Part shown: in pieces, positions 3,144 through 49,900 of the stretch
Position numbering within the stretch: the stretch's first letter is position 1
Layout of the letters: the number at the start of each line of letters is the position of its first letter
NCBI RefSeq assembly: GCF_037042905.1
Contig: NC_087251.1
Coordinates: 11,782,001 to 11,846,000, forward strand
Length of the DNA: 64,000 nt
Origin: Lytechinus pictus
Taxonomy: Eukaryota
Reading direction: 5' to 3'
Notes under the pieces: generated by a model
The model's database searches: none
The model's input: the letters and a program-made list of their open reading frames with translations, nothing else
What the model was told of the DNA's origin: nothing
Program-made: the position numbers and the translations under genes

Positions 3144-3415
3144 GGGCATCGTGGTCAAGGGGTTAGGACTCTTGTCTTTCAATCTGAGGGAAGTGGGTTT
3201 GATTCTAAGCCATGGCATGTTTTCCTTCAGCAAAAATTTTACCCACATTGTGCTGCACTCAACCCAGGTAAAGTCAATGGGTACCTGGTAGGAATTTATT
3301 CCTTGAAATGCAGCTGCTGTGCTGAAGCCAGGGTAATTATGCTGCACTACTGTAGAGTGCTTAGAGACTTCTGATAAAGTGTTATCAGCCATAAAAGCAA
3401 CTATTTTTTTTTTCT
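3144..3415 (+). mobile_element. tRNA-derived SINE
   Basis: A box TGGTCAAGGGG, B-box-like GGTTTGATTC, conserved core CTCAACCCAGGT..ATGGGTACC; a second partial copy lies in reverse at ~48660-48835. Confidence 0.8.
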
Positions 3416-16200: not shown

Positions 16201-19200
16201 GAGTTTTTATCAAAAAGTAATTGTGACAAGAATTCCTCCGAATAAAAATTCTGTTCAAATTTGATAAACTTCACCCTATTCAATTTGATAGACAAAATTG
16301 TACAAGTTAGAACGTCCAGTTAATTTAATATAGACTACGATACGTGATACAAACAATAATGATAAACATCTAGATCTAGAGTTCTACATAATCAACTATA
16401 CATAAGTTAAGTACATGTAAATGAACAACAATAAATTAAATAATTTAATAATTAGATTTAATAATGCACCTATCAATTGTAAGATGCACCCCCGACCCCC
16501 GGGAATGGTGCGTCATGGTAGGGTCATTTACCAACAAATTAGTGACGCAGGGTACCGTCATGGAAATATTTGGTCCGTCACAGTTTGAGGATTGGGGTTC
16601 GTCAATGTCAGTCATTTTACCTGGGTGCGTCATGATGCCTCAGTGATACAAAAATTACAATATATTTTATATATCTTTCGTTATGAACTCCAGTTCTCCC
16701 AGAAGAAATATAATTGACGAATTATTCCAACAACGTCGGAAAGGAAAATAAAACAGAGTTGAAGTTGGTATCATCTCAGATTAGTTGATGTGTCAGGACA
16801 TGTTTTAAAATTGTTTTGAGGAGCTAACGAGTTAAAATATATTTCATGTACCTTTCGTTATGACCTCTTTTTCTCCGTTTACTGGCCTTACACTAACTTC
16901 CCTTTGTGTCTGCCTACTTCTTTTCTTTCATCCCCTTCACTAACTTGATTGGTCTTTTCTTCTCACTAATGCCCCTTTTGTCTCCTTGTTTCTAGTGTTG
17001 CTTTAGCTTGTCTGTGGTCTATATTATGGTTGTTCCACTTTACATGTTTGTCATTTTGCCTCCGACGAAGATTCTGCTAGGATCGAAAGCTTAGGCCCCT
17101 TTTGACTTTCTAAGAAATATTAAAGACGCATTTTCTCGAAAATGTTAGGAACGTAGATAAAACAAAATAGAAGTTGGAAACATCTTAGATTAGTTGGCGA
17201 TCTATCAGGACATGTTTTAAAATTGTTTTGAACGGCTAACAAGTTAAAATATATTTTATATATCTTTCGTTATGAACTCCCGTTCTCCCAGAAGAAATAT
17301 AATTGACAAATTATTCCAACAACGTCGGAAAGGAAAATAAAACAGAATTGAAGTAGGTAACATCTCAGATTAGTTGGCGATCTATCAGGACATGTTTTAA
17401 AATTGTTTTGAGGAGCTAACGAGTTAAAATATATTTCATATACCTTTCGTTATGACCCCTTTTTCTCTGTTAAGAAATATTACAGACGCATTTTCTCGAA
17501 AATGTTGGAAACGTAAATAAAACAAAACAGAAGTTGGAAACATCTGAGATAAGTTGGCGATCTATCAGAGCATTTTTTAAAATTGTTTTGAACGGCTAAC
17601 TAGTTAAAATATTTTATATATTTTATATATCTTTCATTATGAACTCCCGTTCTCCCAGAAGAAATATAATTGACAAATTATTACAACAACATCGGAGAGG
17701 AAAATAAAACAGAATTGAAGTTGGTAACATCTCAGATTAGTTGGCAATCTATCAGGACATGTTTTAAAATTGTTTTGAGGAGCTAATGAGTTAAAATATA
17801 TTTCATATACCTTTCGTTATTACTCCTTTTTTTCCGTTCATAAATATTAAAGACGCATTTTCTCGAAAATGTTGGAAACGTAAATAAAACAAAACAGAAG
17901 TTGGAAACATCTTAGATTAGTTGGCGATCTATCAGGACATGTTTTTAAATTGTTTTGAACGGCTAACGTGTTAAAATATATTTTAAATATCTTTCGTTAT
18001 GAACTCCCGTTCTCCCAGAAGAAATATAATTGACGAATTATTCCAACAACATCGGAAAGGAAAATAAAACAGAATTGAAGTTGGTAACATCTCAGATTAG
18101 TTGGCGATCTATCAGGACATGTTTTAAAATTGTTTTGAGGAGCTAACGAGTTAAAATATATTTCATATACCTTTCGTTATTTTTAATTTTTAAAATCGAA
18201 TCTGACATTTTACTCTGACGAAGGTGCGTCAGGGAGACGGTCATGGTTGGTCAAAATCTTGAACTGGTGCGTCACTTTTTTCTTTCTTGGCAGGGTCATT
18301 GTATTAAGTAAAGGTGCGTCATTGTTAAGAAACACATGTGCGTCATGGTACCACAAAATCTAGACAGGAATAACCGTTGTTTCTGGGGATTTATTCAACA
18401 ATTTCTGACATTTTACTATCATCCCCATTCACCGACAGTAGTGTGTTAGTGCGAGCCTGCATGTGTAATCATTTCTTCCAATTCGGGCGACCGGGTTTTG
18501 TCTATATATTTTATTTTTTTTACATTCTAAATGACATTGTTTTATCTTGAACGAAGGCCCACTATTTTCGTTAGACTCTAATCTTTCTTTTGATACTATA
18601 AATATTGCAAGAAAATATACGTTACCGATGATTTATTCCTTATTTTTTGAATTTTTCTGCCGGAGAGGAAAAATGGCAACCGTGTGTTGCTGCCCTCTAC
18701 GTTCAACGAGTTGTGCTTTTATCAAGGCTTTCCGATCAGAATCAATGCGAGTGACAAGTTCCGAACGCACGCACATCTACAAGCGCAATGCATTGGCAAA
18801 AATCGTGATATATAGCGACTGGTAAATACGTCTGTAATGATGATGACGTCATCCAAGATGGCATCTTACGTTGGCCAACGAAAGGATCGAAGATGAGTAT
18901 GTTTTGATCATCATTTGAAAGGTAACTGCGGTCTAAGGTACAATATTTCTGAATTTTATATATTTTTTCATAAATTTGATGTCATTTATTTTTTTTATAA
19001 TGTGACATTTTATGTACAAAAAAACAATCTGAAAATCGGGTTTCCGCCGAATGTTAGATCTAACGTTACTGCTTATACGTTGTCTGTACGTACGGGCCTC
19101 CAAGCTCATCAGTCTATGTATTGGTGAGTGAGCCAACTTTTACAAAGAGCTAATAGAAAGTGTAGAATCAAACTCACTCCCTGCCTTGATATGTTTACAA

Positions 19201-22200
19201 GAAACATGGTTCACTGATTTCAATATATTAGCAATTCCAGATTTCATCCCAGTAATAGAAAATAGAGGCCAAGGAGGAAGAGGAGGAATTGCAATATATG
19301 TGCAACAAACAGTTACTTTCAAAGAAGTTAATTTCCCTCAAATCAAGGAATATCAAAGAATTGACATTTTCACTTATGACAAGGTCATTTCATTAATCAA
19401 TTATTATAATCCCTGTCAAAAGATAGAATTGCGCGATTTAGAAGATTTGATTGAAAATTGTTCAAAAAACATAATAATTACAGGTGATTTCAATTCACAC
19501 AACCCTCTGTGGGGTAGCATAAAGTGAGATAGTAATGGGACATTAGTTGAAAACTTTATAACAAATTATGATTTAGTAGTATTGAATGATGGGACACCTA
19601 CAAGAATGGACATCCATACAGGGACAAGGTCTTGCCTAGACTTAACAATTGCTTCGAAGGAAATTGCCAGCAAACTAAAATGGAACGTGCTAGAAAATTA
19701 CGGGAGTGATCACAATGTCATCAAGTGCTCACTGCACGAAATAGAATATGTAGATCATAATATCAATCCTCATGAAAAGAATTGGTCCTTCAAGCATGTA
19801 AACTGGGAAATATATCGGGAAAAAATGAAACATAAATTTAGTAAAATAAAGATATTACAATTTTCACACGATCAGAATATTCAAGATAAATACAATTTGA
19901 TTTTGCAGATAATTAACGAAGTGGCAGAAGAAACCCTTCGCAAAGCGGGCCAAAATCGAAAAGCCAAAAACCCAGTTCCTTGGTGGACACTAGAATACTA
20001 AGAAGCAATTAAAGAAATAAATAAATATAGAAATCGATTAAATAGACATTTTAGAAAGGAGGACTTGGAAATGTATAGGAAAAAGAAAGCATATGCCCCA
20101 AAAATAAAGAGACGAACACAAAAGGAATACTGGTTAAATTACTGTCAGTCTTTGAGGAGAAAATCCAACTTAGGAAAAGTATGGGAAATGGTAAAAGGAC
20201 TACAAAATGGTTCTGTCTCAAAACATATATTTCCCAATTTATTAACAGAAAACAATACACCAGTAGCTAATGCTCAAGAAAAGGCAGAATTGGTTGCTAA
20301 GGCTTTTAAAAACGATAGACAATCGATTAGACAATGACGAGATTATTAGAAGAAATTCATTTGAAAATTAAATACAAAATACGATCAAAGAAAGCTGCTC
20401 TTCTGAATCACCTCTTGATGATGAATTTACATAGATGAATTAACAAGCGCTGTTAAAGAAATTAAAAATTCTGCAGCAGGAATAGATGGTATCAAATCAA
20501 TTATGATACAACACCTACCGAAAATAGCTCTTCAGTTCATATTAGTTTTAGTAAACAATATTTGGAAATCCTCAATTCTACCCTCAGATTGGCATTATTC
20601 TACCCAGATCCCTGTACTTAAACCAGGTAAAGACCCAACAAACCCTTCTTCATATCGACCTATTTCCTTGACATCAACTTTCTCCAAACTGATGGAAAGA
20701 ATGGTTAAAATAGACTTGTATGGTTCATGGAGCGATGCAGTATCCTGACACCAACACAGGCAGGATTTAGAAAAAATAGAAGTTCTTTAGATCAGCTCCT
20801 TAGATTAGAAACGGACATACAGAAAGGATTAGCTAACAAGGAGTATGTACTAGTTATTTTCATTGACCTTGAAAAGGCATACGACCTTTTATAAATGGAG
20901 AAAGGGAATAGTATTTAAATGTCATCAAGCTGGTATAAAAGGAAAAATGTAACAGTGGATTAATTCATTTTTACAAGATCGATATTGCAAGGTAAAAATT
21001 AATGGCCAGTTATCTTCACAATTTGTTCTGGAAAATGGAACGCCCCAAGGTAGTGTTATTAGTCCAATTTTGTTCAATTTAATGTTGAATGATCTAAAAC
21101 TGATAGAAAAATCTGTAAAAATCTCTATGTATGCCGATGATATTGCCGTATGGTGCTCAGGCAGAAATCTTGACTTTTTACAAAAGAAAATGCAGAAAGC
21201 TATAAAAGAAATTGAACAGTGGTGCTCAACCTGGAGTATGATTATTTCTCCTCAAAAGTCTGCTGTTATGATTTTTACCAATAGGCAGCATATAGAGGTA
21301 AATATTAAGGTTAAAGATAACTCTATACCACAATACAAAGAATATAAGTTTCTGGGTATTTGGTTTGATGTGAAACTCACCTGGAAAAAGCACATCGATT
21401 ATATAAAACTCAAATGTTCAAAAAGAATCAATTTGTTACAGTGTATAGCAGGAACAAGTTGGGGGAATAATAAAACAATTTTTTATATAATATACAAAGG
21501 TCTTATTAGATCCATATTAGACTACGGATGTGAGTTATACGACTCGGCTAGCCTTTCGCTAAAACAAGAATTAGATTCAGTCCAATATCAGTCACTGAAA
21601 ATAATAACTGGTGCAGTATATTACCCTGCCGTTGAAGCACTACAGGTAGAATGTGGTGAAAGACCTTTACAACTAAGAAGAGAACTGTCTGTTGACAAAT
21701 ACATGTTTTATCTTTTAACAAACAGAGATAGTCATCATCCTACTTTAGAAATTATTGAACCTTCCTGGTATATTGATCAATTTACTTGGAAATCAGGTCG
21801 TGGACCCTTTGTAGTCAGAGCATGTAAGCCAAATGAAGAGATCCAAATTGAACAACTAAGCCAAAGAATATTACGAGAACCTTTTTGGTCATATGAAATA
21901 CCTAATATTTCTTACTATATCCATAAGATTATCAATAAACAACGTAACTTAGTACAAGATATGAAAAACTGTGTCTCAGAAAGGATATATACAAGATGGA
22001 AAGGTTACTTAAATTTCTACACTGATGGATCAAAACAAGAAGACAAGAGAACCGGCTCTGCTTTTTATATACCAGAACTGGATATTAAAAGATTCTATAG
22101 ATTAAATTCTGTAAGTATAATGAGAGCCGAATTAACAGCAATGGTAATGGCACTTGATTGGCTAGGAGCGTCCGTAACGTTGGGGAAGTACAATAAGAAA

Positions 22201-25200
22201 CAAGATGGCGGCGTAAACATCGGGCAAGTCTCTTCCGTCTTTTCACAATATTTTTTCATTTTTTTAAAATGAATTCTTGTTTAAAGATAACAACGAGAGC
22301 GTAGAAATGTCGGAAATGAAGTTTTATCCCATGAACATGATTTAGGTCTAGATCTTTTAGAAGGAAAGTAGAAATCTCGGGGGTGAAAGTTTCAGGTTTT
22401 GGCTTCCTTTGTGTGGGTCTATGAGATAGAAGCCCTGGCTTCGTATGAGAGTAACCTTACGTTAGTAAATGATTTTTACTCTCTAGAAGCCGCCTGGCTA
22501 GGACAAACTGCGATGCGAAACCATGCGCTGAAGCCTGAATCTGAATCATGAAAAAAAAATGGCTCTCGAAAACTGAAGTGAAAATGGCTCTGGTAAAATG
22601 AAAATGGCTCTCATTTTTTTTTTCAAAATGGCTCCCTAAACATGCTAAAAATAAAAAGTTATCTCAACACGACAATGCGTTATCCCACTCCCAGTATGGT
22701 TGAAAGTACCCCTTATCGACCACCTAATCTTCTAAGCATCGTATCTGCGAAAATATTCATCAATTGTACCCAGTTTTCGTCTCATTTGTGCAGAAAATTG
22801 AGCAGATCAGATTCCCATGTTTCGCTCGGCGACTCCGATTCAATCCGCGTACATATCGACGAACAACGAATACGACGATTTTACATTTGCTTATTTGCAC
22901 CCGTCTTTTGAAACCGACCACCCGCGATACATTAAGTTTACGGCCGATTCTTGTCGCGGTGGCGAAATATTTTTACTCTTCCAAATCAGTTCTATGATGT
23001 CAACATGCTAAATGATCGTCTCACTACTTCCACTGCGAGCTCCGGCACATGATTCGACGATTGACGACGGGTATTTGTTCTTAAGCGGTTTCCTATCGGA
23101 TTTCTTGGTTTTTCAGCGGGGTTTGGGTCTGGTCAATACAATTTTGATTAATTCTAGTAAATTTTTACTTTTTGTTCCTTCCTTTTTTCTCGTAAAATCG
23201 ATTCATACTGTTTCTATGGACACTGCGCCTACTCTCCCGCGCGTATCGTTTGTAATACGCAATAATTTTAACGCGCGCAAGGTGGTCGGTTTCAAAAGAG
23301 GTGGTCGATATGTGGTACTGGTAGTAGGTATGTGCGAATACGGGCGCATCGCGAGCGCTGGTTTTGGCTGCACGGTTTTCGCGCGGGTTTTGCTGCAAGT
23401 GGCATCGCCTCTGTCTGGGCGGCTCATCGAAAATGGGGTTTCATGCACATGCGCACATAGTTGATGCAATCTCGTGCCTTGATACAGACAGTTGAAAATG
23501 TGCTCTTTCTGTACATATAAGTTTCAATGTGGATACTCGCCTGTGAAGTGTGGATATCGGAGCTTGAAAGTTCATCAAATTTTTGGATGCGCAAATGATC
23601 GAAATTTTTTTATGGTAAGTAGAACTACGATCCAATTATGTATCTAAATTGTTTTAGAATATATTCAAATCTACAAAAAATGTCAAATCAAAAGATTCTA
23701 TCGTGGAGCAGTCCAGATATAAGCGAAGCGAGCTACCCTTGTCACAGCCGGTCTCTCAGCAGTCGAGCTGCCCGATGCGGTGGGCTCCCGACGGTCTTTC
23801 GGCAGTCAAGCTACCGGTACCCGATGCGGAGGGCTTGGTGACGGGAGTGGTCGATAGTGAGTCGTTCATGCTGGATTGAACTGGATCTAAATTGTTCACT
23901 TGATAATATTGTGCCTTTTTCTGAAAACGTCTGTCATTATACCGTAGATTGTTATTCTGATATTGATTTAATTGATTTAATATTGATTTAAATATATACA
24001 TTTTGTCACAAAAACATTCTTTCCTCCTAAGGTTATAGAGTCAACATGAACATGTTTTACTTTGATTGTTCAATCATGTTTTATCATTTGGAAACTGGAT
24101 TATTTTGGAAGTGGAATATTAATGTTGACTTATTAAATTAAAATGCAAAATCTATAGTGTTTTTTTTTTTCTTTTGTAGAAAAAAAAATATTTTGAAACT
24201 TTTCAATCATGTTTCATTATTTTGAGACTGGATTTGCTTTTGAAAGGGGAATATCATAAATGTTGACTTTTTAATTAAAATGCAAAAATTATGTTTATTT
24301 TTTAGTTTCTTTTTTTATATATTTTTTAAATATTTTTTTTTGGTCATATTTCAATATTTGGAGACTGGATTTGCTTTTGAAAGGAGAATATCTTAAATGT
24401 GATTTTTTTATTAAAATGCACGAACTAGATGTTGTTTATTTTTTGTTGTTGTAATTTTTTCACTCTTATGAGAAAATACATGAAAACTCAGAGGAAAGGA
24501 TATTTCATTTCCAGATGGGTCTAACTCCTGTATTTATGTTTTCTTTATTATTAATTGTACTATTTATTTTTTTATTCACTTTTCTTTTTTTAGGGGTGCA
24601 GGTGGGGGTTGTGTTTTGAATTGGAAAATGGGGATGGGATTGGTACAAGTTTTTGTGTCACTTTTGTTTCTCTTGTTTTTAGTGCTTGTTTGGAGCTTTG
24701 ATGTCTGTTTTGTTGTTGTTTAAAGCTTTGTTATATATTTTTACTGGTTGTTTTTTGTTTTGTTTTAAAAGAAATAGACCACTCTTTTCCTTTTCTTTTG
24801 GCTTCGACTAATAATTTGAATTTATTTTTCTTTAAAAAGAGAGCTCAAACAGGGCCTTTGTAATACAATGTATGTATACAAATCTAAGAAATTGACAACT
24901 GATAGAATATATTAAAACTTCATTTTCGTCCTTCTTGATACTTGAAATAAATTGCATACAATTCTACATACATATTTTACACTCAGCTGCTCATTCCTTC
25001 TAAAAAAATGTAATCACATGTCCATTGTCTCTCAAATCAAAAGCTACATATTATAACAAATTGTTGAAACAATAGAATACATAAGGAATTGGTGAAACAA
25101 TCAAATACATCAGAAAAAAACACACATATTTTTATTTGGTCATACAAAGTACAAAAGAAATTTTTTATATGTAAAAAAGGACCCCCGTACATACAAAATT

Positions 25201-28200
25201 ACAATACTAAGTTGAAAAAGAGCTTGTAATTTATATCAGAAAAACAATGAAATACATTAGAAATTACAAAAACAATACTTTAGACAAATTTATTAGGAAA
25301 TTATCTACATGATGATGTTTTGATGCCAACTAAATTATATTAATTATCTATCATAATCACCTTCATTTGGCAAAATAAAGAGGCGAGTAATTGTGATTTT
25401 CTGTTTGCATAATTAATTAGAATTAATTAGAAGAAATTATTTTAAACAGAATAAGAAAGATTACAAGATGAATTGATGCACATCAATTGAGCCTTCTCTC
25501 ACCTTTTCATTGATACCTAAATTACTTCATAGGGCTAAAAAACAAAGAAGTTAGAGCCTGTTGAAGACTTGGGTTCAAAATGGTCACAAAATGGTCACAA
25601 AAATCGGTGCTGTACTCCATTGACTTTACATTAAGACAATGACCACAAATTTGGATGAATATGTGCGACTTAAACTGGAATAACATTATAATTTCTTGAT
25701 GAAAATTAAAGTTCTTGGTATCATTTTAAAGGTCTTTTTAAGAGCTTTCAAGTGATACCAAATTTATTCATATTTGATGATTTTCATTTTTTTTGTCACA
25801 TACCTACTGGTAGTCTCACCATACGACAATAGTACCGGTAATAATAGTATACACCAGTCACCAGACGTGCAGACGGTGGACTGTAATCAGTAGAGGCGCA
25901 CGGCCAATATGGGAGACTCTCTCCAATAGGGGAGACAATCTCCCACATTGGAGACTTGCTTTGCAAAAGGACAAAAGAAACAACACCAACAAAAGCATGA
26001 TTTTTTCCACCCAAAATTTTGTCTCACTGAGGTCAGAAGCCCATTTGTTTTGTGTGTGATTGACAACAAAAATCCTTATCAAAACAAAAGTAGATGGTGA
26101 ATTTTTAAAGTAGACGGTGAAAAGGGGTAATTTTTCATGAGGAATCTGCTAATCACATTTTTATTTGCCGCCAAGGTAATCCTTTTGCAGCAAATGTAAA
26201 CAAAGGAAATTGGTATCCAAAACTGGAGACTGTCTCTGAAATTGGATACCCAAATTCTTTACAAAAGTCTCTGATATTGGAGATAATCTCCCACATTGGA
26301 GACAGTCTCCAATATTGGCCGTGCGCCTCTACTGGTAATACTGTTTCCAGAAGAAGAAGGAGAACACTGTCTCCAACTTCATTTGACATAGAACTAGATA
26401 ATGTTGTAAATCGGATCAAAAATCAGATCGAAAATCGGATCGGCAGTTAAGCTTCTAAAATCGAAATCGAATCGAAAATCGAATCGGCGATGTTTAAAAA
26501 CAAAGGAATACATCAAAATGTTGTTCGCGGTCGCGCGCATCTTCCTGACAAAGTCACAAAGACGAATGCATTGGAATGGAAGTCGCCAACATGCGCGATC
26601 GTTTGGAACATGTTTTAAAGCCAGGGGTTTTGAGGTGTTATTGCTTTAAAATAAACCGAGTGATTTTTATTAGAAAGATAAACGAAAGACGCATCTTCCG
26701 AGCAAAGGCGCAAAGGAAAATAAAATGAAAATATTTCTCATAGATCACAGGTTAATGAACGATCGGCGGGACATCTTTTAGAAGTATTTTTAGGTGCTAG
26801 CGATTTAGAATTATTGGAATGATCTCTTACGACGCATCATCTTAAAGTCGCAAGTGCAATTAAAATGAAGTAGACGACGCAAGCACGCACGATGATTTGA
26901 AATATGTTATTAAAATGTTTTGGGTAGCTAGCGTTTTCAAATCAATTTGAAGTTCACGGCGGGGTCCGCTATCACCACGAGGTTGAAGAGAAGATGTCTA
27001 TCATCATAAAGGGGGTAAGAGAGTAGCGCAGTGAGCTCCGTCGGTAATACGACCTTTCAAAGTTCACGGCGGCTTCCGCTATCACCACGAGGTTGAAAAT
27101 AAAATGAATATCATCATAAACGATGTAAGAGTAACGCAATAAGCTCCGTCAGTAGCACGATCTTTAAAAGTTCACGGCGGGGTCCGCTATCACCACGAGG
27201 TTGAAAATAAAATGTAAATCATCATAAACGATGTAAGAGAGTAACGCAATGAGCTCCGTCAATAGTACGACCTTTCAAAGTTCACGGCGGGGTCCGCTAT
27301 CACCACGAGGTTGAAAATAAAATGAATATCATCATAAACGTTGTAAGAGAGTAACGCAATAAGCTCCGTCAGTAGCACGATCTTTAAAAGTTCACGGCGG
27401 GGTCCGCCATCACCACGAGGTTGAAAATAAAATGTAAATCATCATAAACGATGTAAGAGAGTAACGCAATGAGCTCCGTCAATAGTACGACCTTTCAAAG
27501 TTCACGGCGGGGTCCGCTATCACCACGAGGTTGAAAATAAAATGTAAATCATCATAAACGATGTAAGAGAGTAACGAAATGAGCTCCGTCGGTAATACGA
27601 CCTTTCAAAGTTCACGGCGGCATCCGCTATCACCACGAGGTTGAAAATAAAATGTATATCATCATAAACGATGTAAGAGAGTAACGCAATAAGCTCCGTC
27701 AGTAGCACGATCTTTAAACGTTCACGGCGGGGTCCGCTATCACCACGAGGTTGAAAATAAAATGTAAATCATCATAAACGATGTAAGAGAGTAACGCAAT
27801 GAGCTCCGTCAATAGTACGACCTTTCAAAGTTCACGGCGGCATCCGCTATCACCACGAGGTTGAAAATAAAATGTATATCATCATAAACGATGTAAGAGA
27901 GTAACGCAATAAGCTCCGTCAATAGTACAGTCTTTAAAAGTTTCTGGCGGGGTCCGCTATCACCACGAGGTTGAAGAGAAGATTTATATCATTATAAACG
28001 ATGTAAGAGAGTAGCGCAGTGAGCTCCGTCGGTAATACGACCTTTCAAAGTTCACGGCGGCTTCCGCTATCACCACGAGGTTGAAAATAAAATGAATATC
28101 ATCATAAACGATGTAAGAGAGTAACGCAATAAGCTCCGTCAGTAGCACGATCTTTAAAAGTTCACGGCGGGGTCCGCTATCACCACGAGGTTGAAAATAA

Positions 28201-30647
28201 AATGTAAATCATCATAAACGATGTAAGAGAGTAACGCAATGAGCTCCGTCAATAGTACGACCTTTCAAAGTTCACGGCGGGGTCCGCTATCACCACGAGG
28301 TTGAAAATAAAATGTAAATCATCATAAACGATGTAAGAGAGTAACGCAATGAGCTCCGTCAATAGTACGACCTTTCAAAGTTCACGGCGGCATCCGCTAT
28401 CACCACGAGGTTGAAAATAAAATGTATATCATCATAAACGATGTAAGAGAGTAACGCAATAAGCTCCGTCAGTAGCACGATCTTTAAAAGTTCACGGCGG
28501 GGTCCGCTATCACCACGAGGTTGAAAATAAAATGTAAATCATCATAAACGATGTAAGAGAGTAACGCAATGAGCTCCGTCAATAGTACGACCTTTCAAAG
28601 TTCACGGCGGCATCCGCTATCACCACGAGGTTGAAAATAAAATGTATATCATCATAAACGATGTAAGAGAGTAACGCAATAAGCTCCGTCAATAGTACAG
28701 TCTTTAAAAGTTTCTGGCGGGGTCCGCTATCACCACGAGGTTGAAGAGAAGATTTATATCATTATAAACGATGTAAGAGAGTAGCGCAGTGAGCTCCGTC
28801 GGTAATACGACCTTTCAAAGTTCACGGCGGCATCCGCTATCACCACGAGGTTGAAAATAAAATGAATATCATCATAAATGATGTAAGAGAGTAACGCAAT
28901 AAGCTCCGTCAATAGTACAGTCTTTAAAAGTTTCTGGCGGGGTCCGCTATCACCACGAGGTTGAAGAGAAGATTTATATCATTATAAACGATGTAAGAGA
29001 GTAGCGCAGTGAGCTCCGTCGGTAATACGACCTTTCAAAGTTCACGGCGGCTTCCGCTATCACCACGAGGTTGAAAATAAAATGAATATCATCATAAACG
29101 ATGTAAGAGAGCAACGCAATAAGCTCCGTCAATAGTACGATCTTTAAAAGTTCACGGCGGGGTCCGCTATCACCACGAGGTTGAAAATAAAATGTAAATC
29201 ATCATAAACGATGTAAGAGAGTAACGCAATGAGCTCCGTCAATAGTACGACCTTTCAAAGTTCACGGCGGCATCCGCTATCACCACGAGGTTGAAAATAA
29301 AATGTATATCATCATAAACGATGTAAGAGAGTAACGCAATAAGCTCCGTCAATAGTACAGTCTTTAAAAGTTTCTGGCGGGGTCCGCTATCACCACGAGG
29401 TTGAAGAGAAGATTTATATCATTATAAACGATGTAAGAGAGTAGCGCAGTGAGCTCCGTCGGTAATACGACCTTACAAAGTTCACGGCGGCTTCCGCTAT
29501 CACCACGAGGTTGAAAATAAAATGAATATCATCATAAATGATGTAAGAGAGTAACGCAATAAGCTCCGTCAATAGTACAGTCTTTAAAAGTTTCTGGCGG
29601 GGTCCGCTATCACCACGAGGTTGAAGAGAAGATTTATATCATTATAAACGATGTAAGAGAGTAGCGTAGTGAGCTCCGTCGGTAATACGACCTTTCAAAG
29701 TTCACGGCGGCTTCCGCTATCACCACGAGGTTGAAAATAAAATGAATATCATCATAAACGATGTAAGAGAGCAACGCAATAAGCTCCGTCAATAGTACAG
29801 TCTTTAAAAGTTAATGGCGGTGTCCGCTATCACCACGAGGTTGAAGAGAAGATTTATATCATTATAAAGGGGGTAAGAGAGTAGCGCAGTGAGCTCCGTC
29901 GGTAATACGACCTTTCAAAGTTCACGGCGGCATCCGCTATCACCACGAGGTTGAAAATAAAATGTATATAATCATAAACGATGTAAGAGAGTAACGCAGT
30001 GAGCTCCGTCGGTAATACGACCTTTCAAAGTTCACGGCGGCATCCGCTATCACCATGAGTTGGAAGAGAAGATATCTATCCCCTTAAACATTGCCATAGA
30101 TAATACCGCGACTTTCTCCCTGAATAATGCGACCTGTAAATAGCTAGCACCTCAAAAACAATCTTGAAATATGTTCTGAGCGATCACGCACTGTAACCAG
30201 ATCTACGCCGATTTTTTATTTTCGATTTTTTCCTTCAAGCCAAGGGGCATGATCGAAGATCGGCAAGTGATTGCCGATTGTGGTGAAATCGAATGGAATC
30301 GGTTACAAGCTTAGAACTAGATCTAGGCTTAACTCAGTTTATTCCCAAGGCAATAGACACGCCCATTTATCGGCGAGAGCTAGAGTCGACCGCGTCGATG
30401 AGGCATCGACGCGAGCCGTCCGTCGCGGCATAGCCCGGCGCGGCGGTTGTTCCGATCACCGTCAATCGTCAGTCTGAGTCTGACTGAGACAGAGTCAATG
30501 CAGTCCCACTCCCAAAACACATATATTCAAGTTTCTTAACATCAGAATACAAAATATATCAAAATCTCACTTTGTATATGCAGCACCTATGTCAAAGATA
30601 GCAGCTGTCTTCTCTACCCCAACGCTGAGACCCTCAAAAAGTGGCAT
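7025..30647 (-). CDS. ACTR10: Actin-related protein 10 (dynactin Arp11/ACTR10), full spliced CDS, 423 aa
   Basis: complement(join(7025..7230,8490..8691,9167..9322,9935..10011,10564..10679,11492..11559,11980..12087,12622..12730,15108..15260,30571..30647)) = 1272 nt, all phases consistent. The translation [36 protein letters not shown]...[20 protein letters not shown]...AWLGGAIFG...PDWCSL is collinear with vertebrate ACTR10 as I recall it. Confidence 0.96.
7530..8362 (-). mobile_element. Truncated, more diverged copy of the 58327-59520 element in the last ACTR10 intron
   Basis: Same GGTCATGTGACCTGAAACTC repeats and the same end AGTCTCGCTCTGCTATGCAGGCGAGACAAAAA. Confidence 0.75.
8490..8691 (-). 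CDS. ACTR10: ACTR10 exon 9 ([18 protein letters not shown]...AWLG)
   Basis: CAG acceptor, G|GTAATT donor; actin-fold IGGTS motif. Confidence 0.95.
9167..9322 (-). CDS. ACTR10: ACTR10 exon 8 ([12 protein letters not shown]...LDSILK)
   Basis: CCCAG acceptor, AAG|GTTAGT donor. Confidence 0.94.
9935..10011 (-). CDS. ACTR10: ACTR10 exon 7 ([12 protein letters not shown]...DDSK)
   Basis: CAG acceptor, AAG|GTAGGT donor; conserved RTCF motif. Confidence 0.9.
10564..10679 (-). CDS. ACTR10: ACTR10 exon 6 (NLERQLKE...VLEDIK)
   Basis: TTTCAG acceptor, G|GTAAGT donor. Confidence 0.92.
11492..11559 (-). CDS. ACTR10: ACTR10 exon 5 ([22 protein letters not shown])
   Basis: AC acceptor, GA|GTAAGT donor. 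Confidence 0.93.
11560..11979 (-). other. U12-type (minor spliceosome) AT-AC intron of ACTR10
   Basis: 5' site ATATCCTTT, branch site TTCTCCTTGAC (11588-11578), 3' site ...TTCAC; removal joins VLP|IYEG in frame. Confidence 0.92.
11980..12087 (-). CDS. ACTR10: ACTR10 exon 4 ([11 protein letters not shown]...ETTVLP)
   Basis: CAG acceptor; followed by the U12 donor ATATCCTTT. Confidence 0.93.
12622..12730 (-). CDS. ACTR10: ACTR10 exon 3 ([20 protein letters not shown]...KRYE)
   Basis: TTTCAG acceptor, GAG|GTATGT donor. Confidence 0.95.
14241..15005. mobile_element. Small MITE (GGGGTGTTTCACAAA TIRs) containing a nested fold-back MITE at ~14400-14950
   Basis: Outer TIRs at 14241 and ~14990-15005; inner arms are ~150-bp near-perfect inverted repeats ending CCTTTAA. 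Confidence 0.7.
15108..15260 (-). CDS. ACTR10: ACTR10 exon 2 ([15 protein letters not shown]...LHHIYFR)
   Basis: CAG acceptor, AG|GTGAC donor. Confidence 0.94.
16660..18180. repeat. Tandem array, 180-bp unit, alternating A/B variants (360-bp dimer), ~7-8 units
   Basis: GGACATGTTTT-type motif at ~16797, 17209, 17389, 17569, 17756, 17936 and 18116. Confidence 0.93.
16880..17110 (+). mobile_element. Penelope-like pseudo-LTR fragment with a minimal hammerhead ribozyme motif (17058-17096), inserted in a satellite unit
   Basis: The 230-bp block is absent from sibling repeat units and contains GCCT-CCGACGAA-GATTCT(GCT)AGGATC-GAAAGCTT-AGGC. Confidence 0.6.
19135..22166 (+). mobile_element. Decayed non-LTR retrotransposon ORF2 (APE endonuclease + RT + RNase H; I-group/Nimb-like)
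   Basis: ICLQETW, GDFNSH and GSDH (APE); [37 protein letters not shown] and YADD at 21130-21141 (RT); FYTDGSK and SIMRAEL (RNase H). It has in-frame stops (19525, 19999, 20335) and frameshifts and is truncated at both ends. Confidence 0.92.
24065..24430. repeat. Three diverged ~140-bp tandem units
   Basis: TTCAAT..GA.ACTGGATT..GAATAT..AATGT..ATTAAAATGCA at ~24068, 24202 and 24350. Confidence 0.7.
25888..26334. mobile_element. MITE with 23-bp TIRs and 5-bp TSD (GTAAT); copy 1
   Basis: CAGTAGAGGCGCACGGCCAATAT...ATATTGGCCGTGCGCCTCTACTG, flanked by GTAAT on both sides. Confidence 0.88.
26400..30311. mobile_element. Putative non-autonomous DNA transposon (Mutator-like TSD length) carrying the 110-bp satellite
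   Basis: 11-bp direct repeat TAGAACTAGAT at 26389-26399 and 30312-30322; termini ATGTTGTAA / TTACAAGCT; inverted subterminal motifs. Confidence 0.55.
26950..30070. repeat. Tandem satellite, 110-bp unit, ~28 copies
   Basis: TTCACGGCGGGGTCCGCTATCACCACGAGGTTGAAAATAAAATG... recurs every 110 bp, with several recurrent variants. Confidence 0.97.
30571..30647 (-). CDS. ACTR10: ACTR10 coding exon 1 ([26 protein letters not shown])
   Basis: ATG at 30647, donor AA|GTGAG; not in the ORF track. Confidence 0.93.
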
Positions 30648-31900: not shown

Positions 31901-34900
31901 GTGAGTATAGCGCAGTGCCCTGTTGTAAAAGAATTCAAATGACCACAAACTTGACATCTGCACTAGTCTATTGTCCAATAGACATAGTTACTTTACATGT
32001 ATATTCATTAAAGAATCTGACTCAAATTGGTGAAAAAAACAATTGATGTAATGGCCTCACTACTCACAACTGCACAATGCAGTTTAGTCTTTAGAATTGA
32101 TTTTTGGTCAAAAATTATATAGGCCTATCTAGAATCTTCCAGATCAAGGTCTAGATCTAGGTCTATCTCTACCCAGACCCAGTTACTTATTAATATCTGA
32201 ACAAGTGAACATAGTATTTTCATTCTGGATGTCAGAAAAAGTTTAAGATTTGGTTAAAAGCAATTTTTCATAAATAATAATTATTGGACAATGCTAGAGA
32301 GTGCAGGCACAATTATCTATGCTTTTTTATTTATAAATATCTTGTGAAATCATGAGGAAGAATTTTTCATTTTTTCAGGTAAAGGAGGACATTTGTACTT
32401 CTTTATTTTTCATGCCAAATGATGCAAATATAAATTGTGTAGGTACTACATGTAAGTGTTCTTAGTCAGTAGAGGCGCACGGCCAATATGGGAGACTCTC
32501 TCCAATAGGGGAGACAATCTCCCACATTGGAGACTTGCTTTGCAAAAGGACAAAAGAAACAACACCAACAAAAGCATGATTTTTTCCACCTAAAATTTTG
32601 TCTCACTGAGGTCAGAAGCCCATTTGTTTTGTGTGTGATTGACAACAAAAATCCTTATCAATTCAAAAGTTGACGGTGAATATTTAAAGTAGACGGTGAA
32701 AAGGGGTAATTTTTCATGAGGAATCTGCTTATCTCTCTCTTGTATCCTTCCTCCGTTAAGGTCGGAGATCGCTGGTAACAGTTGAAAAATGTAGACACTT
32801 CCTAAGAGTTGTTAGAGCTGGTGAAGTTGCTGAGGAGTTTTCGGCAGGTTGTGTGAAGGTTGCGAATGAAATATAAAATAAGTGTGTGGAGCTGGGTTTT
32901 GGTGTCATTACTGTGGTGCACAGGGGGAAGAAAGAGAACACATTCTAGGAAACACTGAGGGTCTGAATCAAAGAAGCCTGCAAATCACATTTTTATTTGC
33001 CGCCAAGGTAATCCTTTTGCAGCAAATGTAAACAAAGGAAATTGGACTCCAAAACTGGAGACTGTCTCTGAAATTGGATACCCAAATTCTTTACAAAAGT
33101 CTCTGATATTGGAGATAATCTCCCACATTGGAGACAGTCTCCAATATTGGCCGTGTGCCTCTACTGTTAGTAGAGGTGTGACAAAGTGAAAAGTTATTGT
33201 GCTAGGTCAAACACTTTCATGGTTTTATTCTGGTTGAAAGTTAATTATAATGTTCTGTGAATCATTCAAAATTAATGTTGGACATGATCTGTTGAGAGTC
33301 TATGAGGACTATCCATAGTGTGTGTTTTTTGTTGTTTTGTACCTGTACATGTACAAACATACATTTTAGTGTGTGTGTGTGTGTGTATTTGAGTTTTGTC
33401 AGACGTGTATCAATCAGATTATTTACGTCTGGGACCGACCTTTAACGTCACCCTCCGAAAGACGTGACCAGGGCTCAAACCTCTGCATCAATTTGTAACT
33501 TCCACACAGCTTGGATTACAGGCGCATGCCACAACTCCCAGTTAGGCCTATATCAATTATCAGAAATTAATTATTAGGGTTTTTTTTAAGTTCAGTGACT
33601 CCACACACTTAACCCAAATAACTTGAGTAATAGAAAAATTAACCTCAGAATATAAACCAATGTTAAAAGTAACTTCTTTAGTCTTTACCTGTCCTTACCT
33701 TCTGTAAATTTTCTAAACAGTTGGTGTAAGTGCAAAATCAAAAAGGTCATTGGAAGGAGATATCTACCAGCCTATCAGAGTGAAGACTTTTGTTCAGAAT
33801 GTGGAACATCTTAAAGACTCAGTGCAGGTCGAGAAGCTTGAGACCATCATGGCTGGTGCAACATCTGTTATTCAAAAACTGCTGTCAGGTATGGGGATAG
33901 AGAAACAATGCCACCATTCAAATTTATGCATATTGTTTAAAAAAAGTTGGTTCTTGACAACCTCAAAGATTGTCAGATGCTCGTGAGCTGTAGAAACAAG
34001 AAATGTGTACCAACTGGATTTGAAGAATTGAAGTGCATTTACTTTTCTAGGGTAAAGGAATCCAGGAATGAACATAACCAAGAAATTTACTAATTTATGA
34101 ATCAGTAGTGTATTGAAACTCCCCTCGTGAGCCAACATAATTCTGCTTTTTCTTAATATTTGATAAGTTCTTATTTTGGGCAGATACTTTGGCTTATTTT
34201 GATTTTGCTTAATCAGTACTATGCATACACATTTCTAAGTGGTTGCTATTTATGGTGATTTTTATTCAGCATTTTTTAAAGTTAAACTTTATGTAACAAA
34301 TAGGGATGACATTTAAAAAAATATTGATGAAGAAGTTAAAACTACACTTGATATAATATAACCTCTGAAAATAGAATTCGTACACTTCTGCAGTGCATAT
34401 GAATTTGAACTTTCAGGTGACAAAATTATTGATAAGGCACAAATAAAATCATATCAATTGTTCACTCTTATACTGTGTCTGAATTCTTAAAGATATGTTT
34501 TCTATTCTTGATTTGTATTTATTCATTGTATCTAACCAGTTTTTCCTGTTGAAGGCCCAATGGTAATTGATAGATCTGAAACAGCTTGTAGAACTACATA
34601 TAATGGTGGACAGAATGATGGAAAGTAAGTCCCTTGCTCTAAAAAAATGTAGATGACATTTGACTCAATACAAAGTATCATCATCTAGAGGAGTTTCATT
34701 AGGAACTACATGTATCGTGATGAATGTGCCATTGAGTGAACATCTGTTTATTTTTCCAGAAATATGTACTGTAGGATCAGTCAGTAGGCATATATTTTAT
34801 ATTTGTATATATAGTAATATAAATGATATGTTTCTAGAATGTTACCTCAAGGTAATAAGGCAGAAAGTGTACTACTTGAAGTTTTGATTTTTACTTTTGG

Positions 34901-40900: not shown

Positions 40901-43900
40901 TTTAAAAATAAGAGAGTTTGACTTTCCAGTCTTTCTCCCCGAACCAGGGACACTTACCTCTCTGATGGGATATTTCCATCTATATATTAGTACTTTTACG
41001 ATTAAGACTAGTAACTTAGATGTAGATATAGACTAAAGATAAAATTCTGCCTCCACCCATTGGTGGCGCCATCCCTGCAATTAACCGCCTATGGCCTATA
41101 GGGTGGGCTAAGGTTTCTGCCGCCGAAAGCTCCAGCGGCGCAGGTCCTTATCTTTGGCTAGGGTATTGTGTAGGGTAGTCCCATATGCTAAATTTTATGC
41201 ACTGTTTTAAGTAGATATTAAATGGATTTCCTTTAAAAATAACATGGAACAACTTGTTTAAAGATAATTTAACCTTGACAGTCATAGTAAATCACTCTTT
41301 TCAACACGTTGAGGTACTTTGTGCAAAACATAATTACACAAAACTTAAAAAAATGCAAAGTTTCTCTCTTATCAAACACTTTTTTCGACATTATTTTGGA
41401 AGCCAATGTATGCAAAATAACAGAAGATATATTGACAAAAGGGCACCTTTAAATGTTAAAATACTCACATTGGCGTCTAGAAAATATGTCCATGAGTTGA
41501 AAGTGTCGAAGTATTTAATCACGAAATGTGAGAAAACGTGTAATTTATTAAAATTGCTGGAGGTATGCACCTAGCAGAAGATCACAAGTGCAGAAAATTT
41601 GCCAGAGGGAACTAATTGGGACTCCTTGAAATATCTGACCAATCAGAGCACACTTCCGGTTTCGTCACTCTGTTTGTTTATTTACTACTCTGACATTGAT
41701 ATGAGCGCACCCTCTGCGGCTGGTGCATCGGCGACAGGTTCGGGGATTTTTCTTCCCGTGACCGTGTTTCTCCCCTTTTTCCTGACCCCTATTTCCATCA
41801 GATCGAGGACGGTGAGCACCCCTATTTTCATTACTTCGAGGAGTGTTCTGTACGCGGACGTTCCATGAAATTGACCTCTTTTCCTGCGATTTTGGTAACG
41901 GTCATGCAGTCCCCAAGTCACATTGAGTGACCCCACCAGGCTAAAAGGGTAGAACTGACTATACAGTATTATGATATACTTGCACTCTTTGTTAAAATTT
42001 GATTTTATACCTTTCATTTAGTGAATACATTGATTGAATGAGTAGAAATCCAGTCAGTTTAAATACTGAAATGAGTTCTTGTCACAAAGAACCACCTACA
42101 CCTATACACAGAGGTGGGACTGTTACTTGTGATGCCACATGTGACTGTAGTCCCATGTACTCATATCTGTGCAGTGCTTAAAGTGAGAATTTCATCATGA
42201 TTGAGTCACTCTGCTATAATATTTGAGAATCAATATCATAAATAGCACACTTTTTTACTTATTGTACTAAATAAGACTTTAATTCTCACTAAATACCTCA
42301 GCATTTCTCAAAGTATTTGTCTTTATTTCCAAATTTAAGGCGCACAAAGGAATGGTAGGCCTATATATTAACATGATTTGTGAATAATGTGACTCAGAAT
42401 TAAAACAAATATATGAAATCAATACCATATTTTTTTTAGGCACACTCAACCTTCCTTGATAATATGACCCTGGCTGTGTTTGAGGATTCGGGTTGGTACA
42501 AAGTAAATTATGAATATGCTGGGGACTTTCTCTGGGGTAAAGGCCAAGGATGTGAGTTTGGAACGGTTGAGTACTGCTCTACAAACTTCACCCAGTTCTT
42601 CTGTAATAATAGGTTGGTAGAGAACATATTGGTGATGATATATATTCTATAAACAATTATTTAATATTTTCAGTTCATTAGAACGAAGGAGGCATTATAA
42701 AAGTAATATATTCAAAGGATTTCGCTTTCTTGTACATAGCTCATGAATATTCATGAGTTTATTGAAAATAATGCATATCATGATTTACCATATTTGATAG
42801 TAAGATGAATCACTTCTGTAGCAAAACTATTTTAGTATTAATGCAGTATTGCATTGTAATGTTAAATCGCCTCTTCGGGTATTCATTATGCAAATTAAGC
42901 TACATGTAGTGTATATGAATGAGCTCATTTGCATAATTTATGCACAAAGTATGATTTCTGTTGTTAGACTTTTGTAGAAGCCTCATCGCTGCAGTTTTTT
43001 TCACATAGTTTTGTCAGTTTTCAATGTTTAGTTATATTCTGCATAATTTTATATCATAATCACTAATTATGTACCAAATAAAGTGACTATCTTATATATT
43101 AACTGTATAATGGGTACACACACATGGGAATGATACATATAGTCCATGATCCATAATGTGATTTCACTCAGAAGATTTGTTATCCAAGTTACACACAGAG
43201 GACGTAGTTTCTCATCACTGACTTGGGGGAAAGTCCCTGGACCCATTAGTAGAGAGTACTGCATAATGATGATGTTATGTCTGTTTAGTCTGTGGTCCTC
43301 TCTCATGGGCTAAGAGGTCGTTAGGACTGAGCCTGAGGATAGACTAGGCATTTGTCAAAGCACAGTCATGCAAATACCACTTCTGCTGGTAACAGAATAG
43401 GGCTCACTCTCTGAGTATATTCTTTTTGTAGCATATTCTTTCAATATGCATGTACAATCGGGAGAGCAAGGATTTACTCGGGGAGGGGGGGGGGGGTGAG
43501 GAGGGGGCAAAAGTTGAGACATGTTCAAGAGACACTTTAAGTATGTTATTTGCACCAAATGTTTTTAAAGATGAAACTGCAATAACAAACCTTTTGAACA
43601 ATATCATAATTTTTATTTCATGTATCTCAGTGTCTCAGGCTGTGACTACCTAGGGCTAAACAAGGCTACATGTACCACAAATACCTATCTAGATGGATGT
43701 AAGATTTATTGGCCAGAAACTGAGAATCAGTGTGTGTTTTCTTCCGTTGATGGGAGTCTCAATAGGACGGGTGAAGTAACTGGACCTGAGAGCAAATGTT
43801 TCTTGTCAAATTCATTTTTGGAGGTGAGAATATATGTTTTTCTTTTTTAATTAGGTGATCTGTCTGTTGACAGATCACCTCTTATGTTTCTACAAAATAT

Positions 43901-46900: not shown

Positions 46901-49900
46901 ATTTCAATGATATGGCCTGATTGAAAAAAAATACTGGTATGTTGCTTTTTACACCTTTATTGTTATGGATTTTTATACTGCATTGTGTTTTTTGCATCTT
47001 TTATATGGTCTTTCATTTTTATTTCATTTTCATTTCATTTTATTTTCCACAAATCAATCAAAATACAAAAAACATATAACTCATTCCGAAATAGTATGCA
47101 TAATGACAATATAAATGCAGATTCAAAGTGGATGGACCTAAAGTAAAGCAAAAGCTTGTTGTGGATAGGCCCTTAACAAATAAGTAATGTGTAATCATTG
47201 ATAGCTAAAAATAGTTGCAGAAAAAATAGAAGAAAAAAACAGCAACAAAAAATTTGCTCTATGAAGAAATGAGGTGATATTAGATCATTGCACTGTATCT
47301 TTTTTAAAAACGCAAATGGATGTCTAGTCAAAATTAGAAAAGTGCTATGGCCCTGTAGCTCGAGTCGTATACATTGTAGTTAATGAAGAAAAGAGAATTT
47401 AATTCAAAATGAAATGAGCAATTTGGTTTTGGGTTGCATACCTGCAAACTGTCCTTTCATGTATTAGATAGGAATATTCCTATTTTGGAGAAAAGACAAT
47501 TATTTTAACCTATTTTGATCTCATTGGAAAATTTTCTGTACCGGTAGTTTTAATATGAAATTGTGAATGTTCCGATTTCTAAGTAATGTTTCCAATTTCT
47601 AGGTAATTTGTTTTACTGTCAGGGTTGGCAGGTATGACATTGCAATAGAATGTTAATAGTATTTTATAGTACATGCCAGCTGATAGAAGCTATTATCTGT
47701 TTGGTAGTAAAAAAAAATTTTTGGGGTTGAATAACTTGCTGCCATCATTGCCGGAGATTCTTGTTGTGTGTGTGTCTGGATGTCCAGGTGTGCAGGCAAA
47801 ATGTAGTGTACTATCGCTAATTTTTTTTTTACTGATGTAGCCATGACAACCTGTGTGATGTTTCATAAGTTAGACATGACTAAACACATGTCTTTAAGCA
47901 TGACTGCTGACCCTTTCAAATTCTAAATAATTATGATTCCTGCAGCTAAACGTGAAATCTATTTCTTATACATTAAAATTATTATTTTGACAAGTGTCTG
48001 AATGGAATATTCTATATTTTTCCCAAAGTTTAAGTTAGAGTTATTGGATTCCACCCCATCAGCCTTTTGCACAATATGTTTGCAATGCACAAGGAACCCA
48101 CCACAGTATTTCATTATACTTTCAAGTCTTGCACTTCTTTGAGACCAAATTTGCAACATTCGGGCACATGGTTCTTGAATTACATAACATTCTGTACTTG
48201 CTCATTGGACCCTAACTTTTTTCTTTTTGGGGGGGGGGGGTACTTAAAGTGCCCCCTTCTTTGTGAGATGGGTCCAAATAACCTTTCTTAGAATAGAAAC
48301 ATTTGTATGTATGTTGCAAGTATTTCATGTTTGCAATGATGATAATACTAGCAAAGCATAATGATAAATGATTATTGTCATTATGATTGTTTTTTATCAG
48401 GTTGTTTCTTCGAATTTTTTCATAGGTACCTGGTTATGAAGGCGAGGTTCAATGTCCTTCTGTGGAAGTTGTATGTAAGAACCATTCCTCTCTCGTAAGT
48501 CTGGTCGACCCACCCTGTCTGACCTGTTCTACGACTACTACTTCTGCTTCTTCTATATCAACAACTCAAAGTAAGTCATTATATGTGCATGTGTATGGTC
48601 AACTTGATTTTAAATTTACAGTTTTGTTAATAACTGGGCAATAATGATAATAATCATACTTGCTTATATAGGAACAATCACTTTAGCAGAAGTCTCAAAG
48701 TGCTCAACAATAAGTAGCATAAACAGCATGCAGCATGATTACCCTGGCTTTACCAGCTGTTATGCACTCTGCATTTCACGGAATAAAGCCCTGCCTGCTC
48801 CCAATTAACCTTATCTAGGTTGAGTACAGCACATTATTGTTGAAATTTTGTTAGCAGTATATCTAATAATTCATCTAAATAAAGTCAAACCTTCAGCATT
48901 CACGTGTAGAGGAGAGCAACCTGTCTATAAAGACTGCATGTACAGGCTTGGCCTCCCTGTGAATAATATTCCACATATATATAGAAACACATAGAAACCA
49001 AACCACAAAGACCACTTGCCCACAAAGACTGCTATTCTTGTGTCCCTTAGCAGTTAGATGGTTTTTATATCAAGTTTCACTGTATATGTCATGCATATGA
49101 GTTCATTGTGTGATCTATCATCACTCGAGTTGAGGCTCTGTTCTATCCATTGCACGAAGCCGTTAGACCAAGTGCAATGGGTTGAACACAGCCACAACGA
49201 GAGTGGATAGGTCGCATAATGGACAAATGAAGGCATGCATCATTTGGTTTATACAATCACTCTTCTGGATTGTGTTATTTGACACAATAGAAGAAAAAAA
49301 AAGCGTATGGAATTAAAATATATTTGCCTTTGTCTGGCAATTAATTTTCTCTGAGAACATGATTATTTTTCCCCCATGTAGGCTACATGTACATTGTATG
49401 AAAGCAGTTAATTGTTTTCATTCTTTTGTAACACACTTTGATACATGAATCTGCGTGCGCACAGTCAGCCTTGTTGATGCGCATACTTCGTTGCACGCAA
49501 ACACACACACATACAAAATGTACGTAGACACACACATGCTCAGTGGTGCACACTAAGGGAGAGACCTCAACCATGCAATTTAAAAATATAAGATGCACGG
49601 TCGCCGTGCAATGGAAAATAGAGTTTGCATGTTGCACAAAATAGATCATATATTGAATGGCTTTCAACCAATCAAATGACAAGAATCTTTGTATGAATTG
49701 TATTATACCCTTTAGTATTAACCTACCCCTCTTTCTCTCTCTCTCTTCCTCTCAGCTACCCGAGGTGAAGTTCATGATGAAGTTAATTTCTCATTAGAGT
49801 TCAATGACCTTTCTTACTCAGAGGTCAATGAAGGGTCAGAGGTCATTGCCTTCAAAGCTGTTTTGATTGAGTGTATTGCAGATACTGTTCTGCTTCCTCA

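Follow-up and report, generated by a model that had tools for sequence, protein, structure and literature searches.

The minus strand of positions 33369 to 33542 in the window, the whole 64,000-nucleotide stretch of Lytechinus pictus DNA that was analysed, carries a single copy, about 175 bases long and read directly from the sequence, of an interspersed repeat. This repeat, likely a SINE, is real and multi-copy, is very likely headed by 7SL RNA, and has an architecture unlike that of the described 7SL SINEs. Its modules are listed in Table 1. An earlier reading made from the sequence alone (the sequence-only reading) had proposed a 7SL-headed chimeric SINE here. Its place, strand, head, B-box-like 11-mer, body and dinucleotide tail were all recovered, the tail being (AC)9 on the minus strand, and its interpretation gains support from a multi-copy family with a sharp 5' edge at which the match to SRP RNA begins. 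We lean slightly towards the fuller reading that this is the first 7SL-derived SINE of an invertebrate, with a new architecture: a transcribed element that would combine the minimal, 46-nt SRP9/14-binding domain of the host 7SL RNA with a tRNA-type box B, would be mobilised by a non-L1 LINE via its stem-loop tail, would correspond in nature to the engineered SA46 RNA and add a third type of head to the Deu SINEs, and would be annotated nowhere as 7SL-derived.

SINEs derived from 7SL are described as extremely rare, being known from supraprimates, hagfish and the shrew mole only (2026, PMC13023118), and the hagfish family was presented as the first evident SINE1 outside Euarchontoglires (Kojima 2020, PMC7245038). 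The known 7SL SINEs all come from about the same central deletion (PMC13023118). In the literature searched, we found no 7SL SINE of an invertebrate; most subscription papers and the Repbase Reports lie outside the coverage of that search. An echinoderm 7SL SINE, if true, would shift the origin of such elements outside the vertebrates and break the same-deletion rule. It also touches the open question whether the Alu domain is retained because of its promoter or because SRP9/14 gives access to the ribosome, since a 46-nt domain with a box B from elsewhere separates the promoter role from the SRP9/14 role.

Table 1. Features of the element and its surroundings, in window coordinates.
Feature	Position	Strand	Basis
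Presumed first intron of leishmanolysin-like (M8 peptidase) gene	31901..33720	+	splice sites, RNA depth, M8 match
Family 5' boundary	33543/33544	-	loose read-contig ends
Head: 7SL/SRP RNA Alu 5' domain, model positions 1-45 plus one inserted base	33497..33542	-	Rfam RF00017
Presumed box A	inside head, 33497..33542	-	within SRP match
Linker and tRNA-type box B (33481-33471)	33469..33496	-	sits in predicted weak hairpin
Body: opening 37 columns of Deu (Nin) conserved SINE domain	33432..33468	-	by-eye alignment
Tail: stem-loop with 7-bp arms (33431-33425 and 33406-33400), then A/C-rich end	33387..33431	-	inverted repeat, folding
(AC)9 3' microsatellite	33369..33386	-	sequence

A stretch of 901 bases was compared with 4,227 Rfam families using cmscan. 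Metazoa_SRP was found at 33542-33477 with a score of 20.8 bits and E=0.0038, which was the lowest E-value among 15 rows and the only one flagged significant, and position 1 of the SRP model fell on base 33542. The Rfam covariance check that the sequence-only reading had proposed thus returned a significant match, and one that starts at the 5' boundary of the family. When the whole window was scanned, the SRP match had E=0.27 and was one of two rows with E<=1, the other being RNase MRP. The score is far under the Metazoa_SRP gathering score of 70 bits, because about 46 of the 299 model positions align. Whereas a functional SRP RNA gene (RF00017) is about 300 nt long, includes the S domain and scores above 70 bits, about 248 model positions are skipped here. 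The 3' strand of 7SL was not recovered by cmscan, whose alignment covers about 48 positions plus no more than four letters at the very 3' end. By a count made by eye, the head agrees with the Rfam consensus in 27 of the first 35 columns and in 32 of 46 overall; the figure previously given for the first 35, namely 28, had come from a hand alignment and comes down accordingly. A control stretch of equal size (2900-3800) yielded six cmscan rows, none of which is an SRP or a tRNA row. It contains a repeat that we take to be the remnant of a tRNA-headed SINE.

SINE1 elements have a 7SL-derived 5' part (Kojima 2020, PMC7245038), and the RF00017 match, the compensated pairs and the family majority letters, which are described below, all point to such a part. 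SINEBase asks for 60% identity over at least 60 nt to tRNA, 5S or 7SL RNA (PMC3531059), and the head shows 70% over the shorter length of 46 columns, a comparison made against the Rfam SRP consensus that the host 7SL could extend. Taken alone, the SRP match is modest, and it is the family data that give it weight. The first 46 bases were likely copied from 7SL RNA, as in human Alu, and the template would have been the host's own 7SL gene.

Of the 14 model pairs, 11 form in this copy when it is read in the Rfam register. Two pairs of the closing helix, 1-45 and 3-43, carry double-sided changes relative to the consensus (G-C to A-U and C-G to U-A). Compensatory changes had been claimed before for the second hairpin; they do occur, as these two pairs, but they belong to the closing helix. 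Pair 7-20 is regained with the majority letter of the family, and pair 11-16 is non-standard in the Rfam consensus as well. The turn that the head has in common with Alu-type heads is what we take to be the UGU turn. Five loop-loop pairs, which we placed according to the SRP tertiary fold, are all allowed in the head. With these pairs included, 16 of 19 pairs form, a count that was equalled in 35 of 200,000 shuffles and in 14 of 127,904 48-mers of the window, and which depends on the cmscan alignment and carries no P value. Energy folding of the head of this copy gave z +0.59, 138 of 200 shuffles being equally good, and its lowest-energy fold differs from the Alu fold.

Four of 24 sequencing runs were aligned to positions 33180-33780 at 80% likeness, giving 2,778 records for X8 (contigs, probably DNA), 81 for X1 (contigs), 2,248 for X21 (raw RNA) and 1,649 for X24 (raw RNA). 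Depth was restricted to 33390-33557, a few single-locus records excepted. The (AC)9 run was masked as a repeat in this alignment, and its presence is known from one copy alone. The summed X8 depth was 0.81-0.98 million in the four bins covering 33432-33515 and 37.4 in the unique flank, so that the ratio is 21,600-26,300; summed contig depth does not equal copy number, and since a base may be counted as many as 31 times where contigs overlap, the floor of our copy number bracket, about 700-26,000, lies near 700. The sequence-only reading had named single-copy status as an observation that would speak against a SINE, and the 2,778 aligning X8 contigs speak for a multi-copy element instead. Repetition is among the properties by which SINEBase recognises SINEs (PMC3531059), and it was gauged here indirectly via the contig count and the depth ratio. 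With regard to size and dispersal, which are treated in the same source (PMC3531059), the element is short (<1 kb) and non-tandem, and has unlike 5' flanks in at least 48 contigs. It is absent from the 24 tandem-repeat rows of the window. No second copy was found within the 64-kb window using blastn and nhmmer, and exact-pattern scans of viral, metagenome and prokaryote genome contigs gave 0 loci each.

The 5' boundary of the family was derived from these contigs. At least 29 and at least 19 X8 contigs depart at 33543 and 33544, respectively, with an agreement of 0.40 and 0.42 among the rows listed, and this low agreement indicates that the contigs run into different flanks. Because the contigs diverge at these bases, the start of the family lies no more than two bases away from SRP model position 1 (33542), and the read-derived boundary and the model position were each found independently. 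At head positions 33536, 33527 and 33504, 87, 96 and 99% of the X8 depth differs from this copy, and at all three the majority letter is the Rfam letter, so that the match rises to 35 of 46; three further head variants, at 33507, 33522 and 33531, are minority letters. Copies differ by up to 20%, and there are variants with shared indels. One X8 contig (record 16) spans the head from 33515 and continues through the unique flank up to 33780, which confirms the insertion from a second sample. No continuation into 7SL was recognised by eye among the 24 loose-end rows listed (277 more rows exist), and no empty site was present among the two joints listed. At the junctions of this copy, no TSD longer than about 4 bases was found. 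Longer direct matches were considered as TSDs and set aside, since those listed are A-runs located 34-42 bases off the junctions. A LINE sharing the tail of the element was not found within the window by blastn or nhmmer.

The B-box-like segment that follows the head is present as had been read, and is of the tRNA type. At 33477, 97% of the X8 depth differs from this copy, which gives the GTTCGA form of box B. Together with the ten bases that follow it, box B agrees by eye at 16 of 21 positions with BivaMD-SINE1, a tRNA-headed Deu SINE, and 6 of its 11 letters are those of box B in human 7SL as given in PMC7245038 (also by eye). Judged from these letters, linker and box B are likely the remnant of the T-arm of an older tRNA-headed SINE. 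The hairpin in which box B sits folded no better than shuffles (z -0.93). The body agrees by eye with the start of the Deu domain of AmnSINE1 in 27 of 37 columns, or 28 when the majority letter at 33453 is used (PMC7245038, Fig. S4). This likeness concerns the 5' end of the domain, 37 columns, whereas the published invertebrate Deu/Nin domains measure 70-120 bp (PMC4824008). The body had been read as Deu/Meta-type, and of this the Deu part stands (27 of 37 columns), but the Meta part does not, as no likeness to the Meta consensus of the same figure was seen by eye (PMC7245038, Fig. S4). Membership in the MetaSINEs, which have a 66-bp Meta domain behind the head, was likewise rejected, the matching stretch being found in BivaMD-SINE1 and absent from BivaMeta-SINE1. 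The tail stem-loop folded with z -3.46, only 1 of 200 shuffles being as good. Most RNA reads carry five extra bases behind 33416 (1,492 of 1,845 and 634 of 984). The tail is presumed to be a LINE recognition signal.

With regard to its surroundings, the element probably lies in the first intron of a leishmanolysin-like gene, whose exons we take to form one gene. Splicing from a GT donor at 31901 to an AG acceptor at 33720 would connect two open frames without a shift of phase, RNA depth begins near 33720, and a later exon (42440-42649) matches Peptidase_M8. The element is antisense in this putative intron, about 180 bases ahead of the acceptor. The window also holds an exon that shows 97% identity to actin-related protein 10 of Lytechinus variegatus, 84% to that of Diadema and 66% to that of frog (4 matches, 34 candidates), and this exon by itself points to a Lytechinus sea urchin as the likely host.

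In X21, 2,248 of 8.7 million reads align to the element, corresponding to 258 per million, and the strand ratio is 15-21:1 in all 7 bins, whereas X24 gave 128 reads per million at a strand ratio of 1.1-1.3:1. If the usual library-orientation rule holds, the X21 RNA is the sense strand of the element; the orientation of this library is without a control gene, and X21 and X8 carry different organism labels. In the bin spanning the 5' boundary, X21 depth is down to about 1; 143 molecules have their ends at 33526, 33530 and 33532, and X24 shows a pile of 13 at 33530. The DNA run also dips about threefold in the head, so part of the drop in RNA may stem from the alignment or a filter. At least one read-through locus contributes, as 62 reads are loose at 33507. 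The X21 pattern would fit discrete transcripts that begin at the first base and lose 10-17 bases during cDNA making. Both boxes of a SINE promoter are present, accompanied by the strand bias of 15-21:1 in a run of uncontrolled orientation. The bias in X21 and the ends near the 5' boundary are as expected for Pol III transcripts, and the family may be transcribed by Pol III.

Repeat nature, 5' boundary, SRP match, order of the modules and one-strand bias in one RNA run were observed directly. To account for them, we consider it probable that the element is a chimeric SINE, produced by a template switch in which a LINE reverse transcriptase passed from an older tRNA-headed Deu SINE onto 7SL RNA. 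This swap would replace the 5' half of the tRNA head with the 7SL domain. A 7SL box A and a box B left over from the tRNA head would then make up a complete internal Pol III promoter, by which Pol III would transcribe the copies from their first base. The head is predicted to fold as the three-way Alu junction and to bind SRP9/14, which would carry the RNA to ribosomes that translate a putative partner LINE. The protein of this LINE would recognise the 3' stem-loop and the (AC)n end, and target-primed reverse transcription would bring the element to new sites. The addition of a 5S rRNA head to a tRNA-headed Deu SINE is a known precedent for the gain of an RNA-gene head (PMC4758252), and 7SL nucleotides 1-46 have been reported to associate with SRP9/14 and to support retrotransposition in HeLa cells (PMC11760393, preprint).

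The origin of box B is the point at which a different history has to be weighed. All of the first ~80 bases could come from 7SL, in which case its own box B would have moved closer through the loss of about 14 bases and acquired a tRNA-like form by mutation, as in Alu, and there would have been no tRNA SINE head. The order and rough spacing of the boxes fit this, box B lying here at 62-72 and in human 7SL at 76-86, with box A at 6-15 (PMC7245038), and so does the agreement of 6 of 11 letters with the human 7SL box B. However, the cmscan alignment stops at about position 48, while box B and the next ten bases fit a tRNA-headed Deu SINE better (16 of 21) and continue directly into the Deu segment, and we therefore regard an all-7SL head as unlikely. 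We give still less credence to the view that the element is an ordinary SINE2 with a decayed tRNA head, and that its likeness to 7SL is due to chance and a common box A. Neither ARAGORN nor Rfam called a tRNA, which means little because the control stretch gave none either. The anticodon arm is absent, by eye, at the spacing of a tRNA, the majority letters go towards SRP at 3 of 3 positions, compensation is seen at two closing pairs, and the first 30 bases agree at 28 positions with a 7SL-derived head already published. Against these observations stand the tRNA-like box B, the low Rfam score and the fact that the named sea-urchin SINEs are, in the sources available, catalogued as tRNA-derived.

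It is also conceivable that the copies are passive 7SL retrocopies or host small-RNA genes rather than a self-propagating SINE, for which the strong one-strand RNA signal could be adduced, as well as the TSD not found at this copy and the empty site absent from the two joints listed. Yet the 7SL-like part comprises only 46 bases, the remainder including a Deu body, a tail with a stem-loop and a terminal microsatellite, and the divergence between copies of up to 20% and the variants with shared indels also argue against it, which makes it very improbable. The Alu-like head might finally bring to mind contamination with primate Alu or a misassembly. This is next to inconceivable, as an X8 contig joins the head (33515) to unique flank up to 33780, the family occurs in 4 of 4 runs with two organism labels, and body and tail are not those of Alu.

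Compared with known systems, the chimeric SINE proposed here comes close in composition to hagfish SINE1-1_EBu (Eptatretus burgeri), which likewise has a 7SL-derived head on parts of an older tRNA SINE and a microsatellite end (PMC7245038). Of the first 30 bases, 26 are equal in the two elements, or 28 when the majority letters are used (by eye). However, SINE1-1_EBu keeps 7SL nucleotides 1-96, its own box B and the 7SL 3' strand, whereas the element keeps about 46 bases and has a tRNA-type box B (PMC7245038). The tail of SINE1-1_EBu is RTE-derived and its TSDs measure about 17 bp, whereas the element carries a different tail behind a Deu segment, and a TSD was not found at this copy (PMC7245038). 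Because nothing beyond the head is common to the two by eye, the element likely has an origin independent of hagfish SINE1, and because no downstream sequence is in common, the likeness of the heads would reflect conservation of 7SL rather than kinship.

Alu, B1 and Tu of Euarchontoglires and Urop of the shrew mole have the same 5' Alu domain, box A and pairing loops (PMC7245038, PMC13023118). In these families a central deletion of about 183 nt has left both 7SL ends in place, whereas the element is without the 3' strand, and they end in poly(A), Alu and B1 being mobilised by L1, whereas the element ends in a stem-loop and (AC)n (PMC7245038, PMC13023118). In SINEs of the Alu/B1/Urop/Ebu1-1 type, both 7SL strands rebuild the whole Alu domain; here, box B and Deu follow the head. 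The element appears to work like a SINE1 and has the head by which Kojima recognises one, yet we set it apart from the Alu/Urop/hagfish type because its 7SL match falls short of the 60 nt used by SINEBase and the 3' strand is absent.

Its likeness to the opening of the Deu domain brings the element near AmnSINE1, EbuSINE1, BivaMD-SINE1 and sea-urchin SINE2-3_SP (DeuSINE/Nin; PMC4824008, PMC4758252, PMC7245038 Fig. S4). The Deu SINE heads listed in the available parts of these sources are tRNA or 5S rRNA, whereas the head of the element is 7SL-like (PMC4824008, PMC4758252). Of the 120-bp Nin core, just the 5' third would be retained in the element, SINE2-3_SP having been compared by its description. 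SINE2-1_SP to SINE2-8_SP and SURF1 of Repbase come from the same animal group; those that are described are tRNA-derived, and they are known here by name only. One of these families may share the body and tail of the element. A similar repeat is presumably present in Strongylocentrotus. The family may be in Repbase under a SINE2 name, the sea-urchin SINEs having been compared by description only. Those sea-urchin SINEs for which the accessible text names a head are tRNA-derived (PMC3531059, PMC4824008, PMC5804259, PMC3747384, PMC4494074, PMC5786205, PMC3637797), and SINE2-5_SP and SINE2-7_SP were not mentioned in the literature searched.

The boundary of the head, finally, is that of SA46, an engineered minimal Alu domain consisting of 7SL nucleotides 1-46, which is reported to reach about 86% of the retrotransposition of Alu (PMC11760393). 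SA46 is without a full Pol III promoter, is driven by CMV and uses L1 ORF2p, whereas the element would gain its box B from the body (PMC11760393). By this analogy, the element appears to be a natural counterpart of SA46.

Among other copies of the candidate 7SL-headed SINE, two kinds of variant were found. A 7-base duplication inside box B, at window positions 33473–33477, occurred in the aligned sequences of both RNA read sets, X21 and X24, and of X8, a set of contigs that are probably DNA. The duplication counts were 494 and 295 of ~1,600 reads in X21 and 101 and 40 of ~1,050 reads in X24, while X8 yielded 4 and 9 contigs, numbers that are not comparable with those of reads. This box B variant may represent a strongly transcribed subfamily. 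Variants of the head were seen at 33503–33508 among the loose ends listed (points where other copies leave the aligned stretch), with a second loop that is about 2 bases longer, and some of these longer-loop variants carry the SRP-type A at head position 36. The head variants suggest at least two SINE subfamilies. The listed loose ends also showed that the upstream flanks of other copies, at 33543–33544, are A-rich on the element's strand, with a weak consensus (agreement ~0.4), and a possible reading is that the SINE has a target preference for such sites.

Genes and repeats in the window around the SINE
Feature	Position	Strand	Details
Short repeat, copy 1	3233–3420		69% alike to copy 2
Actin-related protein 10 gene exons	~8400–15600	-	
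Broken non-LTR retrotransposon	19132–22272	+	endonuclease and reverse transcriptase matches, RNase H match weak; several frames
MITE-like element, copy 1	25884–26340		97% identical to copy 2; inverted ends of 70 bases
Tandem array	26950–30059		110-base units, n=28, 87% matches
MITE-like element, copy 2	32463–33172		
RNase MRP RNA gene	43162–43419	+	RF00030, 139 bits, E=4e-39
Short repeat, copy 2	48640–48849		

A T run follows the RNase MRP RNA gene, which has exons presumed to belong to the M8 peptidase gene on either side of it, in the same orientation. The exons of the actin-related protein 10 gene served to assign the host to the sea urchins. Copy 2 of the MITE-like element shares a presumed intron with the SINE, and its middle is longer than that of copy 1. 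No tail resembling that of the SINE was found within the window next to the non-LTR retrotransposon. Copy 1 of the short repeat lies within the stretch that was used as control region, and we take this repeat to be a CORE-type sea-urchin SINE resembling SURF1.
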